NCBI GenBank assembly: GCA_963811165.1
Contig: CAWEQH010000008.1
Span: 577,926-641,925, forward strand
DNA from: an uncultured Nitrospiraceae bacterium
GTDB taxonomy: Bacteria; Nitrospirota; Thermodesulfovibrionia; Thermodesulfovibrionales; UBA6898
DNA: 64,000 nt
Direction: 5' to 3'
Shown here: piece after piece, positions 35,101 through 50,100 of the stretch
Layout of the letters: each line of letters starts with the position of its first letter
Position numbering within the stretch: the stretch's first letter is position 1
Position numbers: made by a program

Positions 35101-38100
35101 TTTTAACGAGATGGTCTTATCGCTGCTCTTTGCAATCTTGATCGTATACTCGCTGCCCATGTTGAGCCGCTTGTCTACCTTGAGCGAAATCCCGCCCAGG
35201 CTTATATCGTGGATCTCGACTTCATTGGCGAACATCATCTTGCCGTTGATCCCCAGGATATCGACTGAAAATCTCTTATATCTTCTCTTGTCCTGCATCT
35301 GATTTCTCTATTCCCCTGTATGAAAGGTGAGTCAGCACAACTAGGTAAAACACCTCAGCGGAATTTACTTTAAATCATTTCAGCGCAATAATCAAGTCCC
35401 CGAAAAGGGGATATGACAAAGGTTTGATAGGCACATCGCCCCAGCCTGCCTGCCGTCAAGGACCTCAATGACTACAGTTCCGCAGTATGGTTTTTAGGGA
35501 CCGGGTTCTTACCTCAGAAGCTCAGGGGCCAATCCGACCGGATCGAGGGTGCAGGGAGACGCAGGGAGACGTTGACATCCTCTTAATTACGAAATATGAT
35601 GTGGGAAAAGGAGGCGGCCATGGTATGTACCTTTGCAAATCTGGACAAAGAAAAAGTCGCAGCTATCCAGTCTCTCGAAACAAAACTCGGTAAGACCATC
35701 ATCGCATTTTCCTGCAAGGACCTCGACGTCAGCCCGCTTAAAGACGACGAGATCGCGCAGATCAAGGAGACAGAAAAGAAGCTCGGACTTGCGCTGGTAG
35801 CGGTGAAGTAGGTCCCGGCTTTTCATCATTGGTCCGGGTTATATGGCTTTAATCTTAAGAAGTGAGGGAGGCCGGTGGCTGAAGGAAAAAGAGTAGGAGA
35901 AAGCAGCGTCATTATCGCTCAGGTGATGATACCGCAGGACGCCAATCCCGCTGGTAACGTCCATGGCGGGGTCATCATGAAGCTCATCGATACTGCCGCG
36001 GCCGTTGCGGCGAGCAGGCACGCACGGTGCAACACTGTAACGGCCTCTATCGACAGGCTTGACTTTCACCATGCGGTGTATGTGGGTGACCTTCTTTTTT
36101 TTAAGGCCGGCTTGAACATGGTCGGCAGGACTTCCATGGAAGTGGGCGTCAGGGTCGAGGCCGAAAACATCTTCACCGGGGAGATCAGACATACTGCCTC
36201 CGCCTATCTCACCTTTGTCGCGCTTGATAAGGAAGGCAGGCCTACCGGGGTGCCGCCGCTTGTTCTCGAAACGGATGAAGAGAAGAGACGCAACCGTGAG
36301 GCGCTCAAAAGAAAAGAGATCCGGCTTGCTGAGAGAAAGCGGGAAGAAAGCTGCCAGCTCGATCCCGGAAACTGCACGTAACTATTGGTCGCGCCCGCCG
36401 GGGTCAGGTCTTCAGAAATTCCTGAAACTGTTTTTTTATCTCCAGGTGGTCTATCGGTATATTCGGGACGTCTTTGTTTCCCGGCAGTGCAAGCGCATGG
36501 ATGAACCTCAATCCTCTGCCGTGTTTCTTCATCACCTTGGTGAGCTCTGCTTTCGTCGAAACCTTGCAGGTATCTTTTATCCCGAAACCCCTTGCGACGG
36601 CCTCGAGGTCTACGCATGATCGGGTGAGCGTGGGCTGGTCCCCTGTCGAGCCGTACGAGCCGTTATCGATCACAAGGATCGTAAGGTTGGCCGGAGAGAA
36701 ATGGGCCGCCGTCGAAAGGGTGCCGGGGTTCATGAGCAGGCTCCCGTCACCGTCGATGACGACGACTTCTTTGGGCGTCGTCAAACTCACGCCCAGCCCT
36801 ATGGGCGTTGTCATGCCCATGCTGCCGAGCATATAAAAATTGGACGGTCGATGTCCGGCGGAATATAGCTCTTTTGAAGGAAATCCGAGGTTGCATACCA
36901 CCGCCTTTGCTTCGAGATAAGGCGCCGCCAGAGTAAGTATCTCAAAGCGGGTGTAGGATGGTTTTATCCCTGTCCTGCGCAAAGACGACCCTTCGGCGTC
37001 CTTCCCGGGCCCGGCCTGACAGCCCGGCGAGGGAAGCGGTCCGCATCCTGCGTATTCCCGTGCGGCCTCCGAATTCTCCCAGATCGCCGGGTTCATCAAA
37101 AAGGCGTGGACCTTGTTGTCCCGGTAAGATCCCGCGAGCTTCTTTTCGATCGTTCCGAAATCACCCTCTGCACCGATGAGAGAAAAACCGATCCCCGCAC
37201 CCTCCAGGATCGCCGGGAGCAGCTTGCCCATCGGGAATTGGGCCGCTATTTTTTCTTTGTAAATCCCGCGCTGGCTTACGAAGACCGCAAGAGGGAGCTC
37301 ATAGAATTGTGTGAGGGAAAGCAGGGCGTTGATCATATTTCCGATACCCGAACTCTGGATAAACATCGCCGGTCTTTTCCCGGACAATGCGGCGCCCGCA
37401 CATATGCCGACACCTTCCTCTTCGCGTGTCAGAGGGACATGGAAAGATGATCGTCCCACCATTTCGAGAAGGACCTTGATCTTCTCGCATGGCAGGGACG
37501 CCGTGAAATTGACCCCGGCCTCCGCGAGGATTCTCAGCAGCTCTTTTTCAGGGTTTCGCATAAGGCCCCCTCTATCTCCGCGTCAGTGGCCTTCTTAGAG
37601 ACGAAGGTCGGCTCCACATTATAGGTTTTTTTCTCCTTGCCGAGCATGATCTCGCCGCCGCCGGTTATGTTCAGAAGTATCACGTCGTCCTTCCGGACAG
37701 TCTTGGCCTTCACTGCCTGCACCAGGGCGCCCACTGCCACTGCGGAGGCCGCCACTATGTCCACGCCCTCAAGGTTGCTGAAGAGTTCCATGGACTCAAA
37801 GACCTCGCGGTTGGTCACGCCGTACATCCTGCCTTTTGTGGCGGTGAGGGCGTCGAAGACGCCCCCCTGCACCGAATAGGCGGGATACCGAGTGGAGAGC
37901 ACGCGTGTCGATATCTGGGCTATCAGCTCCGGTCTGAGGTCCTCTTGGGCCAGTCCCCTGCTTCGCCGCTCCCATGCCCTCATCATCGGCGCAAAAGGAA
38001 GGTTCTGCGCAAGGTGAAGCTGGGGGAGGGAGCCGCCGAACTTGCCGTCGCCAAGCAGGCGCTCGGACATCTCCCACACGCCTATACCTCCGGTCCCGCT

Positions 38101-47100: not shown

Positions 47101-50100
47101 TCATCTTCTTCTGATCTGCCATCTTTGTCTCCTCCCTAACATTTTTTTCCGGCCCTAGGGCCAGAAGTTGCTTGATAAAATCAAACAATCCCACTCTTGC
47201 CTCCCCTTTTTAACGGGTTTATATGCCTTGCCTCGGCGTGAAAAGCACCTCACCTCCCTTCGCAAAGACGCGGTGATTCCTTAGTACTTCCAGTTAAATG
47301 CGGCGTCGTGGAACGCCTTCAGGTTTTCATATGGTATGGTCGGCGGGATGTCGCAGCCCGGTACGAGCACGTACCCGCCGTCTTTCCCCGCAATCCCGAT
47401 CACTTCCTTGCAGGCGGCCTCGACCTCGGACGCGGTCTTGTTCAGAAGCACATGAACCGGGGCGACATTTCCCCCGAAACACATCTTGCCGAAGAGGACC
47501 TCTTTGGCCCTGGCGATATCCACCTTCTGGTCGAAGAAGATGACGCTGCAGCCCGTATCGATAAATTGATCGAGCCGGTCGCCTGTGTTGCCGCATATAT
47601 GAAGGATGGTATGTACGTTCTTCGATTTTGCCCAGTCACTCATCTTCTTAAGCGGCGGGACTGCGAACTTGGCCATCTGTTTGGGGTTAATGAGGTCCCC
47701 TGATGCGGTGGGGTCGGCTATGCTCAGACACTCGAGTGAGCCTTCGGCAACGAGCGGTTCATAAAGGCGGATGAGCAGGTCTGCGCAGAAATTCACCATC
47801 TTCTCGACGAACGCCGGTTTTTTGAATGTGAACTTCATGAAGTCCTCTTCCCCTACAAACCTGGCAGCGAGGGTGAAGGGGCCCCAACAGGTCATGGTGA
47901 CCAGATATTTTTTCCCTATTTTCTGATGGACGAGCCGCGTGGCCTCCATGACGTTTTTGACGACAGGGTCCTTATGAACATCGTCGAGGCTGAGCTTGTC
48001 GATATCCTCTTCGGACTTGACGAAGTGCAGGGTGAGGTCCGGCGCGCCTATCTCACGGTATTTTATCCCTGCGCCGAAGGCGGTGCCGAGGGCAGATGCG
48101 TGGAAGTTGTTGTATCCCGAACCCACATAGATTACATCGCTTCTGATCCTCTCCGCCTCCGTGATGCACATGTCGGCCATCTTGGCCGCATCCTTGCCCA
48201 ACTCCTCAAATGTCGACCCGTAGTCCTTGATGCTCCACATACCGCCGCCGAAGAGTGTCACCGGGACCCGCTCTGGTTTTCCCCCTTCAAAGGCCTTGCG
48301 TATTATGTCTCTTGGTTCCATCACTTCCCCCTTCTCATGAATTTAATGTATGCTGTGCATTCTGCTCAGACAATGGACCGTCCTCTTAAACTGTTCGAGA
48401 TCAATGGGTGCTTCGACGCTCAGGACATCTGTCTCAAACGTATCATATCCGACGAATATTACGACTATCTCCGGCAGTATGGTCTTGATTATCTTTATCG
48501 CGTCCTGGACCGGGAGGCCGAACGGTTCCGAGTCGATGACGAGAGAGGCATATTTTTTTTTAAGCGACATCTGCACCGCAATGGAAGGATGGTCTGCAGT
48601 GTCGACGCAGCAGCCTTCATCCCTCAGAATTGCATAAAGGCTTTTAAGGAGAATCGGGTTATTCGAACAGAGCAGCGTTTCTGTCATAAGTGTAGGTGAA
48701 GAAAGCAAGTAAGATGCCATGGGAAAAAGTGCATGATTTCATGGCCTCGCGGGCCCCTAAGGGCTTCGGAGCTGCAGATTGAGTAGAAAAATGCCCCAAT
48801 GTTATGGGGAATAATTACTCACATTCAGGAAGTTAAGATAACGCCCCCAGGCTTCCTGCCGGCAGGCATGGCGCCTTTCCCCCTCTTAAGATAAGAGGGG
48901 GTTAAGGGGAGTTATGATTTCCTAATATCGATAGTCCCCGCTACCGGGGTCGGCTTTACCAGGCTGTCCACCACGGGGCAGTGTGCTATTACCCTTTCGG
49001 CAAGTTCCCTGACCTTGTCCTCGTCATCGGGGGATTCGATCGTGAAGTGGTAGGTAAGGCCCTTAAAGCCCGCTTGAACGCCATCGACCATGAAAAGGCC
49101 CCTCAGATCAAGTGCCCCCTCTATCTCGGCTGAAATTGAATTTACGGTAAGGCCCTCATAAAGGGCAAATTCATAGAACGCACTCTCGATGCATGCTGCA
49201 AATGAGGCCAGAAGAAGTTCAACCGGGTTTGGGGCCTGGTTGTCGCCGCCGGCGGGCACGGGATAATCCGCCTTGACCAGATGGTTCCGCACCTTCGTTT
49301 CCGTGTAGAGGCCTTTTACGTGACGTGACGATACCCTGGGTGAGTAGATGGCAGTCTCCGGTTTTTTCCCGAAGAGATCGATTCTCTTCGCAACGATTTC
49401 TTTCAAATCATGTTCATCTGTTTTTTTCATGAGTGCTCTCCCCGGAATACGATAACGCTATTTTTTCATTCGATTGCCACAGGAGTATTTGCCGACCGGC
49501 CTACTTGGCGGGCCTTACCGGTTTCTTTGCCGCTGTCTTTTTCACCCGGGGTTCCCGGGCCCCAGCGGCCACCGGTTCCTTGTGTTGAGCTGCGGCCTTA
49601 CTTGCTTTTGCCCTTACAGGCGTCTTTTTTGCCTGGTGAGCGGCAGCGGGTGTCTTGACCTTTCCACCCTTTTCCTGCTGAGCGCGGCGGGCCATGACGA
49701 TTCTTTCGGCCTCGAGCCAATTTTCAAGTTCACGGCCTCCCTCTGCAGCCGTTTTTTTCATACAGTTCGTATGCGACCTTTCTGATTTCTTCATGCAGAT
49801 CCATGGTACTCCTCCTTGGAAAAATATTTCCCATACAATAATATCGCTTCTTCGATGCTCATTGCAATACTTGCAATATCGCTCTTCGATCTCATTGCAA
49901 TACTTTCCGGACAATCGGAACATTGACTTGACGCGGGAGAAAGAGGGAAAATGATAAAAATACACATCTGCGGGATGACGATACGGGAGGGGAGAATGTC
50001 ACTTGAAAAGCTGATAGATGACCTCAAAAATGGCGCCGGACTTACCAGAGCGAAGGCAGCGGCTGCTCTTGGCAAACTCGGCAACAATGAGGCGATAGGG

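Follow-up and report, generated by a model that had tools for sequence, protein, structure and literature searches.

What use would a bacterium without Mcr have for coenzyme M (CoM)? The question is raised by an operon of an uncultured Nitrospiraceae bacterium, lying in a 64,000-nucleotide stretch of contig CAWEQH010000008.1 (the window) which was analysed as a whole. A first-pass annotation had read the operon as a methanogen-like CoM module coupled to a membrane heterodisulfide reductase, and as new to Bacteria; as a whole, this interpretation is partly supported. The reading favoured here, with a probability of about 0.55, is that the operon makes or imports CoM for a soluble methyl-transfer hub which operates without methane formation. 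The substrate, direction and energy coupling of this hub are proposals drawn from the genes present.

The operon is real, and its genes occupy the place first assigned to them (36404..48687), all on the reverse strand (-) with spacers of -28 to 151 nt. Profile scores are given here against curated NCBIfam/TIGR cut-offs, with further families assigned by Pfam. The call of cysteate synthase (cs; 37534..38790, 418 aa) is upheld, with a TIGR03844 score of 442.8 versus 324.9. The fused sulfopyruvate decarboxylase ComDE (36404..37561, 385 aa) passes with its alpha part (TIGR03845, 172.7 versus 147.95), the beta part being slightly below cut-off (TIGR03846, 219.4 versus 221.5). The gene for the DUF6951 protein (40792..41148; PF22263) is frameshifted; contigs of two to four other runs carry opposite indels at each listed place, showing the frameshift to be an assembly error. 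In the same genome dsrA is likewise broken into four pieces.

The small first ORF (48343..48687) is receiver-like by eye, has no Pfam or NCBIfam match and has homologues in 10 of 80 related loci. Its start is likely to be 48687, since a longer start would overlap a sigma-54 (-24/-12) promoter-like site on the same strand (48705..48719). The motif recurs 373-427 nt upstream of the gene for the methyltransferase MT2 in 15 of 23 regions, as compared with 0.3% of shuffles, and the operon is probably under sigma-54 control. An NtrC-type activator (PF00158 + PF00072) and a PAS/GAF histidine kinase (GAF, PAS, HisKA), encoded at 50486..54299 (-), are candidate regulators. An OsmC-like protein (PF02566) is encoded at 48912..49430 (-), and such a gene recurs next to the module in other phyla.

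The operon is not a chance grouping, because its gene order is retained. Among 80 loci kept from 114 relatives, 51 cs loci have 8.9 kb or more of sequence upstream, and in 48 of these mtrH-MT1-CP-Fer-RACo-DUF6951 occur in the same order, in keeping with the colinear string first reported from Nitrospirota; comDE follows cs in 77/80 and the Fer4_16 gene is present in 57/80. Across 201 Thermodesulfovibrionia genomes, cs and MtrH are found together in 58 of 59 carriers; every carrier looked at is a MAG, and related genomes are not independent. Orthologous modules also occur in Hydrothermarchaeota, Archaeoglobi, Chloroflexota and Bacillota, a Hydrothermarchaeales contig holding the whole gene set in rearranged order. 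Archaea without Mcr are among the carriers, so the system is not peculiar to bacteria or Nitrospirota. No description of this module was found in the literature searched.

The strongest pointer to the thiol comes from how its supply genes are exchanged. In 8 of 21 Chloroflexota genomes examined, xcb genes replace cs-comDE in the module, with 43-67% identity to the Xanthobacter autotrophicus Py2 pathway. In two of these (G212 and G221) all five xcbABCDE genes, whose products are 47-65% identical to Xanthobacter XcbA-E, lie in one stretch with MT1, MT2, CP, RACo and MtrH. XcbA (463/150), ComA (303/280) and XcbD (692/600) pass their NCBIfam models, and XcbC (570.7/575) and XcbE (423/450) fall below. 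According to the portion of PMC9457059 available, this pathway yields CoM in vitro as its end product. Our genome holds only argH/purB-level matches to xcbABCDE and a divergent ComA (89 versus 280 bits). Elsewhere an SsuA-family binding protein lies within the module (TIGR01728, 194 and 200 versus 163.5); three genomes with this importer (G010, G203, G204) have no cs, comE or comA matches. Of 12 archaeal genomes with the module, 10 have comE-like genes. Replacement of cs-comDE by xcb or an importer makes CoM very probably the thiol of the module, and the proposal that CoM is made and methylated is now better supported than when first put forward.

How CoM synthesis would end is less plain. As first remarked, the known last-step enzymes are missing: PF01837 is found in none of 59 operon-bearing relatives nor in this genome, the MMP16/ComF profile reaches at best 29.9 versus 364, and no ComF/COG1900 was found in 60 carriers searched. 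The best candidate is SbpX, an SsuA-fold protein without signal peptide, with invariant His/Cys and a gene unlinked to the operon. It accompanies cs in 57 of 59 genomes, and archaeal carriers have a cs-comDE-sbpX triplet. Against such a role, SbpX also occurs in G010 and G163, both without cs. Of 24 methanogen-type genomes, 14 encode it, and in one or more of these 14 a COG1900/MMP16-type gene adjoins cs-comDE as well. According to passages of PMC12068725, CoM can arise abiotically from sulfide and sulfoacetaldehyde, and a mutant in MMP16 is still able to grow when given sulfide.

The methyl-transfer enzymes are better defined. MT1 (44500..45525), an MtaA/MtbA-like zinc thiol methyltransferase, passes NF004889 (253.8 versus 244), matches PDB 4ay7 (E 5.8e-49; zinc-site residues H238, C240, C316) and falls in an orthologue clade (29 rows, SH-aLRT 100) within a 50-row clade including methanogen enzymes; it probably methylates CoM. 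MT2 (47281..48324), a putative second zinc thiol/selenol methyltransferase, scores 167.8 on that model, below cut-off, matches 4ay7 at E 8.8e-29 (H242, C244, C324) and has its orthologues in a separate 31-row clade (SH-aLRT 99); for its partner, methyl-sulfur is somewhat favoured. The trees are quick runs without bootstrap, with SH-aLRT values as support. Both proteins keep the H-x-C...C zinc ligands first noticed in them, and His-Cys-Cys zinc sites are a mark of S/Se-methyltransferases (PMC10418091). The MtrH/MtgA-family corrinoid:H4folate methyltransferase (45559..46524) passes NF002142 (332.6 versus 287), is below the equivalog cut-offs TIGR01114 and MtgA NF047990, and matches PDB 8z9u (E 6e-54) and MtgA 6sj8 (E 3.4e-40). 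The corrinoid protein CP (43817..44500, 227 aa; PF02310 + PF02607) is the sole one of its type in the genome (a single blastp match). It is accompanied by the reductive activase RACo (41155..43146, 663 aa; PF14574, PF17651, PF17650, PF00111) and a QueG/RDH-like Fer4_16 double-cluster protein (43171..43809, 212 aa; PF13484). Neither MttB nor a further corrinoid protein nor a transporter for the substrate was found in the genome, in line with a volatile substrate; nothing that would consume methyl-CoM was found either. Since one corrinoid protein is common to all transferases, methyl groups need not pass through CoM on their way between folate and another thiol.

The remaining proteins suggest thiol redox chemistry. 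The HdrD-like Fe-S/CCG protein (38787..40037, 416 aa; CCG + Fer4 domains), possibly a CoM-(hetero)disulfide oxidoreductase, has two intact CX31-39CCX35-36CXXC motifs, both present in 98 of 102 sequences examined. Its partner is an HdrE/NarI/DsrM-like membrane cytochrome b (40027..40710, 227 aa; weak DsrM match, NF038037 75 versus 300) with histidines at 77, 87, 188 and 202 which may bind heme. The energy coupling of HdrDE type once proposed is no more than a possibility: these motifs are intact, but the protein passes no curated model, HdrD included (TfrB at best, 184 versus 385; DsrK 84 versus 400), and no Mcr was found to make CoM-S-S-CoB. Nor is the pair a constant part of the module: no close HdrD-like orthologue was found in G010, G212, G221, G229 or G232, and the search for the pair drew a blank in G010 and in 4 of the 8 genomes with xcb genes. 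The CMD/AhpD-fold protein (46676..47194; PF02627) is the best marker of the module in a marker search, with an invariant S-P-R-C-x-x-H in alignment. The DUF6951 protein, with C11, C35, H72 and C75 invariant across 49 orthologues, is a candidate metal or sulfur carrier from the model of an orthologue (pLDDT 95; weak IscU/SufE-like matches, Z 5.5-5.8). Among the genes that adjoin the module in other phyla are those for DsrE, TusA-DsrE, another CMD, thioredoxin and OsmC.

These parts can be assembled into a tentative scheme. Cysteate synthase and ComDE would convert phosphoserine and sulfite to sulfoacetaldehyde, a general aspartate aminotransferase being assumed for the transaminase step, as in Methanosarcina. 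Sulfoacetaldehyde would then be reductively thiolated to CoM without ComF, by sulfide chemistry or a new enzyme such as SbpX. One RACo-activated corrinoid protein would serve all three transferases, linking Wood-Ljungdahl methyl-H4folate (MtrH-like), CoM (MT1) and a small thiol (MT2), most likely methanethiol or dimethyl sulfide, possibly selenium analogues. The HdrD/cytochrome b pair and the CMD protein may turn over CoM-S-S-CoM or CoM-S-S-R with the quinone pool. The soluble transfer between methyl-THF, corrinoid and thiol in the first-pass annotation fits the families found. The genome has ACS/CODH, AcsE, FolD, MetF and MetV, and methyl-sulfur uptake into the Wood-Ljungdahl pathway is slightly favoured over methyl-sulfur production. 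Against the scheme, transfer from S-methyl to N-methyl is uphill by ~30 kJ/mol, and the operon encodes no membrane Mtr subunits.

Parallels can be drawn with several known systems. The methylotrophic methanogens (MtaA, MtbA, MtsA, MtpA with CP and Ram) share the URO-D-fold His-Cys-Cys zinc methyltransferases, among which MT1 groups, the corrinoid carrier and an ATP-dependent activator. Here, by contrast, the operon has no Mcr, membrane Mtr subunits or MttB, and combines a bacterial-type RACo and an MtrH/MtgA-like folate transferase with CoM supply. The Methanosarcinales type 2 (phosphoserine) pathway (MA3297 cs, MA3298 comDE, MA3299 comF/MMP16) shares cs followed by fused comDE, but its third gene was not found in the carriers searched and their cs forms its own Nitrospirota clade (10 rows, SH-aLRT 100), not nested among methanogen enzymes. 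In Xanthobacter, CoM serves epoxide carboxylation; that epoxyalkane:CoM transferase, which we take to belong to family PF01717, was not found in this genome. Methanosarcina HdrDE and DsrMK share a cytochrome b with a ferredoxin/double-CCG subunit, but here a source of CoM-S-S-CoB is lacking and the dsr cluster is separate.

It is improbable that CoM is made while the module serves to recycle or detoxify methyl-selenium, or to methylate selenide, CoM and folate being methyl sinks. The type 1 mlp clusters (Kountz and Balskus, PMC10418091) share at least two MtaA-like proteins, CP, Ram/RACE and non-methanogenic anaerobic hosts with the operon, and methyl-S/Se chemistry is proposed for them as for the module; selenide is methylated by an Mlp2, and in Methanococcus Mlps act in the use of dimethyl-selenide. 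The genome has selD with an in-frame TGA, and between a selenium LysR regulator and rhodanese-YedF it encodes CMD a second time (93% identity). However, selD is present in 190/201 genomes and does not track the operon, type 1 clusters are defined by having no folate methylase within 20 kb, and CoM synthesis and the membrane Hdr-like pair would be left unexplained; that paper describes neither CoM synthesis nor Hdr, and its supplements have no Nitrospirota or cysteate entries. Also doubtful is a role of CoM mainly as cellular redox thiol, with CMD and OsmC as CoM-dependent peroxidases, HdrDE re-reducing CoM-S-S-CoM, and methyltransferases storing CoM as oxidation-proof thioether or rescuing CoM-corrinoid adducts. 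CoM is an antioxidant in Methanosarcina, as stated in passages of PMC12713407; CMD, OsmC, thioredoxin, DsbA-like and heme-copper oxidase genes lie beside modules, and some importer and xcb genomes have HdrD orthologues too. Such a role would not need the conserved core of MtrH-like enzyme, RACo and two methyltransferases, and the best 120 MT1 homologues are 77-92% identical.

Less probable still is that cs-comDE in Nitrospirota and archaea end at another C2 sulfonate (isethionate, taurine, sulfoacetate) or another thiol, only the Chloroflexota copies using CoM. The lack of ComF/COG1900 in this genome and all 59 relatives would suit this, as would the cysteate synthase proposed for anaerobic taurine synthesis in excerpts of PMC12019592, but a reductase, transaminase or dehydrogenase that could form such a product is not among the recurrent genes of the 80 loci, xcbABCDE takes the same role in orthologous modules, and the sulfide chemistry described above could yield CoM. 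Very unlikely, finally, is a halomethane or O-demethylase system (mec, Cdm, Mto) or new methionine synthase with CoM genes as mere neighbours. The mec cassette has the same parts (MtaA/CmuA, MtrH, corrinoid protein, activator; bioRxiv 10.1101/2021.08.30.458270, in extract), Cdm is similarly composed, and the genome has no MetH or MetE domains. Yet CdmB is zinc-free (PMC13222342, in extract), whereas MT1 and MT2 keep His-Cys-Cys, and neither system is described with CoM, CMD or Hdr genes in those extracts. The absence of MetH and MetE extends across the class (6 and 11 of 201 genomes have them), a MesB-like protein is encoded near metG, and three routes of CoM supply are more than chance adjacency can account for.

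A CoM-linked methyl-transfer hub thus remains the favoured reading. The methyl-transfer module is common to many non-methanogenic anaerobes, and its CoM supply takes one of three forms: synthesis genes of archaeal type, the bacterial pathway already proven, or an importer for sulfonates. These three routes point to an undescribed job of the "methanogen" cofactor CoM, probably in methyl-sulfur metabolism.

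The genes between 48687 and 36404 on the minus strand, with spacers of -28 to 151 nt, form the single co-directional 13-gene operon that the first-pass annotation had described, and its call of a cysteate synthase is upheld by TIGR03844 (442.8 bits against a curated cut-off of 324.9). The adjoining gene had been read as a fused sulfopyruvate decarboxylase, ComDE; its ComD part passes (172.7 against 147.95), but its ComE part falls below the cut-off (219.4 against 221.5), with a phosphonopyruvate decarboxylase model scoring worse (193 against 312.5). Zinc ligands had been claimed for the two MtaA/MtbA-like methyltransferases, MT1 and MT2, and both indeed keep the His-X-Cys...Cys of MtaA (PDB 4ay7), MT1 within a URO-D fold. 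In profile searches MT1 passes NF004889 (253.8 against 244) and lies below the MtaA (240 against 400) and MtbA (171 against 600) equivalogs; MT2 lies below NF004889 (167.8 against 244), and the MtrH family protein scores 332.6 against 287. The corrinoid protein, RACo, the Fer4_16 protein, the CMD/AhpD-fold protein (CMD) and DUF6951 were identified by Pfam matches. The proposed HdrD/cytochrome b pair stands in part: the HdrD-like protein has a cytochrome b partner, a ferredoxin domain and both CCG motifs, in the form of two CX31-39CCX35-36CXXC motifs, which we take to define HdrD, but it passes no curated model.

A sigma-54 site lies at 48705-48719 and recurs in 15 of 23 regions upstream of MT2 genes, compared with 0.3% of shuffles. 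Upstream of the operon, Pfam identifies an NtrC-type activator and a PAS/GAF kinase; sigma-70 and terminator scans were uninformative. The frameshifts in DUF6951 (40761-41107) are assembly errors and, together with those in dsrAB (host contig C8, 231910-234154), show that this assembly has indel errors. Comparison of DUF6951 with IscU/SufU covered fold and Cys ligands; its fold search gave middling Z-scores, 4eb5_C (Z 5.8, rmsd 3.5, 92 aligned) being tied with lipoate-ligase and oxidoreductase domains. For CMD, Foldseek gave nothing at E <= 0.001 and the top rows were all CMD/AhpD; Atlas searches returned CMD and NMT1 clusters only. Elsewhere in the window, an integrase-like C-terminal fragment, recognised by eye, and an adjoining acyltransferase gene (32483-32926 and 31623-32645) occupy a low-GC stretch (43-45%).

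Conservation of the operon was followed through the Thermodesulfovibrionia. Among the cysteate synthase loci fetched, 80 kept from 114 relatives, comDE is found in 77 and hdrD in 74; where the upstream sequence reaches 8.9 kb or more (51 loci), 48 share one order of the methyltransferase block (the exceptions being L029, L049 and L068). Within 201 genomes the cysteate synthase and MtrH cut-offs are each passed by 59 and both by 58; these genomes are kin, so the overlap reflects joint inheritance and not independent events. The operon-type gene cluster, hereafter the module, is present in about 29% of the Thermodesulfovibrionia genomes sampled. folD occurs in 13 of the 80 loci (at L035:6992-7936, inside the operon, and in 12 others), which ties the operon to folate C1 chemistry. 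Some operons hold a second cytochrome b-HdrD pair (L001, L003, L004, L012, L023 and L093, the last from genome G176, where the operon also includes an ABC importer and a chemotaxis receptor). Genome G192 has a second, unrelated corrinoid cluster (L091) of corrinoid protein, URO-D methyltransferase lacking His-Cys-Cys, MtrH and RACo; it may be an O-demethylase or mec-like system.

Beyond Nitrospirota, a distant cysteate synthase query recovered a Hydrothermarchaeales contig that has the whole gene set in a different arrangement (41-65% identity). With CMD as the marker (79 loci, from the best 80 of 189 relatives), the core was found in Hydrothermarchaeota, Archaeoglobi, Anaerolineae, Bacillota and one Actinomycetota bin, some loci consisting of CMD alone. 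In a quick, midpoint-rooted tree of 87 sequences with no bootstrap, 29 MT1 orthologues form one clade (SH-aLRT 100) within a 50-row clade (95) that includes methanogen MtaA/MtbA-type enzymes, and 31 MT2 orthologues form a separate clade (99) not grouped with methanogen enzymes. The cysteate synthases fall into three clades, Nitrospirota, Hydrothermarchaeota and methanogen; a recent transfer from Methanosarcinales finds no support. Three loci titled Anaerolineales (L142), Bathyarchaeia (L167) and Betaproteobacteria (L033) have genes matching methanogen or Nitrospirota loci and are probably misbinned; the cysteate synthases of L142 and L167 nest among methanogen sequences and were not counted. 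Six archaeal modules (L170, L173, L174, L177, L178 and L181) contain a third MtaA-like enzyme in its own 6-row clade, an Lrp/AsnC regulator and DsrE, with an FrhB-like protein in some. In a Bacillota module (L303, genome G202) a single open frame of 689 aa spans cytochrome b and HdrD, and an MFS transporter is present.

Three probable routes to CoM are associated with the module. Nitrospirota carry cysteate synthase and ComDE; of the 12 archaeal module genomes, 10 have comE-like genes and six were directly observed to have cs-comDE, the Geoglobus cysteate synthase lying below the cut-off. Genes of the second route, the xcbABCDE pathway of Xanthobacter autotrophicus Py2, are found in eight of 21 Chloroflexota genomes examined. 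In G212 and G221 a single stretch takes in all five, together with the genes for MT1, MT2, the corrinoid protein, RACo and MtrH; three or four adjoin MT1, corrinoid protein and RACo genes as far as the contig end in G227 and G232; they are linked to mtrH or cmd in G218, G219 and G229, and lie on a separate contig in G230. Full-length matches are 43-67% identical to Xanthobacter XcbA-E (Xaut_5051-5055); XcbA, ComA and XcbD pass NCBIfam models, and XcbC and XcbE fall slightly below their cut-offs. TusA-DsrE and a heme-copper oxidase/NO-reductase-like gene precede xcb-type modules in L184, L196, L199 and L227 (Pfam-checked in L184 and L199). The third route is an SsuA-family importer encoded within the module, seen in G010, G203 and G204, which gave no cs, comE or comA match, and in G231; G176 has importer and synthesis genes together. 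The other Chloroflexota bins, many of them fragmentary, show none of the three. The CoM reading is stronger than the first-pass annotation could show: orthologous modules draw on two further supply routes, and for one of them CoM is the proven end product. According to passages of PMC9457059, the five Xcb enzymes yield it in vitro. The module's thiol is probably CoM, for which the exchange of cs-comDE for xcb genes is indirect support.

The reported lack of a last-step enzyme holds: ComF/MMP16 (COG1900) was not found in the host genome, nor COG1900 in any of 59 other carriers searched. A lead for a ComF-independent enzyme is SbpX, a candidate for CoM synthesis with an SsuA/NMT1 fold, no room for a signal peptide, and invariant His and Cys residues. 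The host copy lies outside the window (contig C7, 21929-22753; L295:7921-8799). SbpX follows comDE in archaeal carriers and is near it in 14 of the 80 Nitrospirota loci; it occurs in 60 of the 201 genomes, including 57 of the 59 cysteate synthase carriers, in those 10 of the 12 archaeal genomes that also have comE, and in none of the eight xcb genomes. Many methanogens and ANME carry it (14 of 24 methanogen-type genomes). Against such a role, G010 and G163 keep SbpX without a cysteate synthase, nine other bacterial genomes also lack SbpX, and G248 has it together with a COG1900/MMP16-type gene beside cs-comDE. An uncontrolled prediction of a ComDE-SbpX complex scored 0.00. Near SbpX, a conserved hypothetical gene (C7, 26189-26743) recurs in 27 of the 80 loci. 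Passages of PMC12068725 offer abiotic thiolation by sulfide as an alternative. HdrD is disfavoured as the missing enzyme: its orthologues (41-49%) in four of the eight xcb genomes and in importer genomes indicate that the HdrD/cytochrome b pair belongs to CoM use and not to synthesis.

The host genome is 95% complete and carries ACS/CODH, AcsE, FolD, MetF, MetV, selD and a split dsrA; Mcr, MttB, COG1900, MMP16 and MetH or MetE domains were not found in it, and the Mcr domain PF02249 is in none of five genomes (the host, G118, G201, G205 and G212). MetH and MetE domains are missing from about 185 of the 201 class genomes, so a MesB-like family, recognised by a weak PF01717 match in orthologues and by context, may be the class's main methionine synthase; the host candidate lies near metG (C8, 257746-258747). 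A lone divergent ComA-family gene (C4, 158292-159035; L260:8221-9072), strong for PF02679 and at 89 against 280 for TIGR03849, comes after genes for an aldehyde dehydrogenase, a class III aminotransferase and a carbamate kinase; being divergent, with unrelated neighbours, it was rejected as a CoM gene. A second CMD copy, of 93% identity (C4, 471171-471629; L085), is flanked by a selenium-associated LysR regulator (NF040786) on one side and by rhodanese and YedF (TIGR03527) on the other.

The best explanation overall, to which we give a probability of about 0.55, is a soluble, CoM-based methyl-transfer hub without methanogenesis. A single corrinoid protein would be common to three transferases, with methyl-H4folate reached through the MtrH-like enzyme, CoM through MT1 and a soft nucleophile through MT2; a nucleophile of that kind is implied by His-Cys-Cys sites (PMC10418091). 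What the hub methylates or demethylates, and whether it conserves energy, we infer. A substrate transporter and a classical first methyltransferase are absent, and DsrE, TusA, OsmC and thioredoxin adjoin modules in other phyla; together these point to methanethiol or DMS. The hub model has a gap, in that a one-corrinoid system makes CoM a non-obligate intermediate. A second is that S-to-N methyl transfer is uphill. Speculatively, a mixed-disulfide route via the HdrDE-like pair would close both.

A more specific and rather improbable extension sees a third biological role of CoM in Mcr-less bacteria and archaea, namely anaerobic methyl-sulfur catabolism. The HdrDE-like pair would couple methanethiol to CoM as a mixed disulfide, with electrons passing to quinone; MT2 would demethylate the disulfide onto the corrinoid, the methyl then going to H4folate; CoM persulfide would pass its sulfur to DUF6951, TusA or DsrE carriers; and SbpX, also found in many methanogens, would be the new ComF-independent enzyme finishing CoM. 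Rivals to the hub are methyl-selenium recycling, CoM as a redox buffer, a pathway that ends in a different sulfonate, and halomethane or methionine chemistry. selD and ACS, each in 190 of the 201 genomes, are too widespread to inform. The operon as a methionine synthase was dropped, given that the lack of MetH and MetE extends across the class and that there is a MesB-like protein.

Among known systems, the hub would work like the soluble CoM methyltransferases of methylotrophic methanogens, without amounting to methanogenesis. It resembles a type 1 mlp cluster in its co-directional genes for at least two Mlps, corrinoid protein and Ram; that type is defined by having no H4folate methylase within 20 kb, whereas here MT1 and MT2 have an MtrH/MtgA-like gene between them, so the module fails the definition. 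It differs from Cdm, whose CdmB is zinc-free in passages of PMC13222342, in that MT1 and MT2 keep zinc ligands, and from mec, as outlined in part of bioRxiv 10.1101/2021.08.30.458270, by its CoM and Hdr genes. Cysteate synthase and adjoining ComDE are shared with the type 2 archaeal CoM pathway, but ComF/MMP16 was not found; motifs, ferredoxin domain and cytochrome b partner are shared with HdrDE. CoM-S-S-CoB as a substrate would call for CoB and Mcr; of these Mcr was searched for and not found, and the HdrD-like protein passes no HdrD model. The available text of a preprint reports archaeal-type comABCDE in bacteria ('Anaeropigmentia' and 14 other genomes), giving no function there, and passages of PMC6775978 suspect an alternate fate of methyl-CoM in Hydrothermarchaeota; excerpts of PMC7857596, PMC12713407 and PMC12019592 are also related. 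The accessible transcriptome supplements for Ca. Nitrobium (PMC8906906) have no cysteate or sulfopyruvate entry. In the open literature searched we found no account of the module, though one could exist in subscription papers or bioRxiv supplements.

The known roles of CoM are as alkyl carrier in Mcr/Acr reactions and in the aerobic carboxylation of epoxides. That the module, in several lineages, has taken up an importer and two CoM pathways unrelated to each other indicates a use outside these. Anaerobic turnover of methanethiol and DMS by non-methanogens is poorly defined, and the module may also provide enzymes for it. Concrete enzymes are also offered for the 'alternate fate' of methyl-CoM in Mcr-less archaea raised in passages of PMC6775978, for the role of lone MtrH genes (in part of PMC9635834) and for a back-up last step in archaeal CoM synthesis (in part of PMC12068725). 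Finally, a methanogen need not be the source of the mtaA, mtrH, hdrDE and com genes found in a metagenome.
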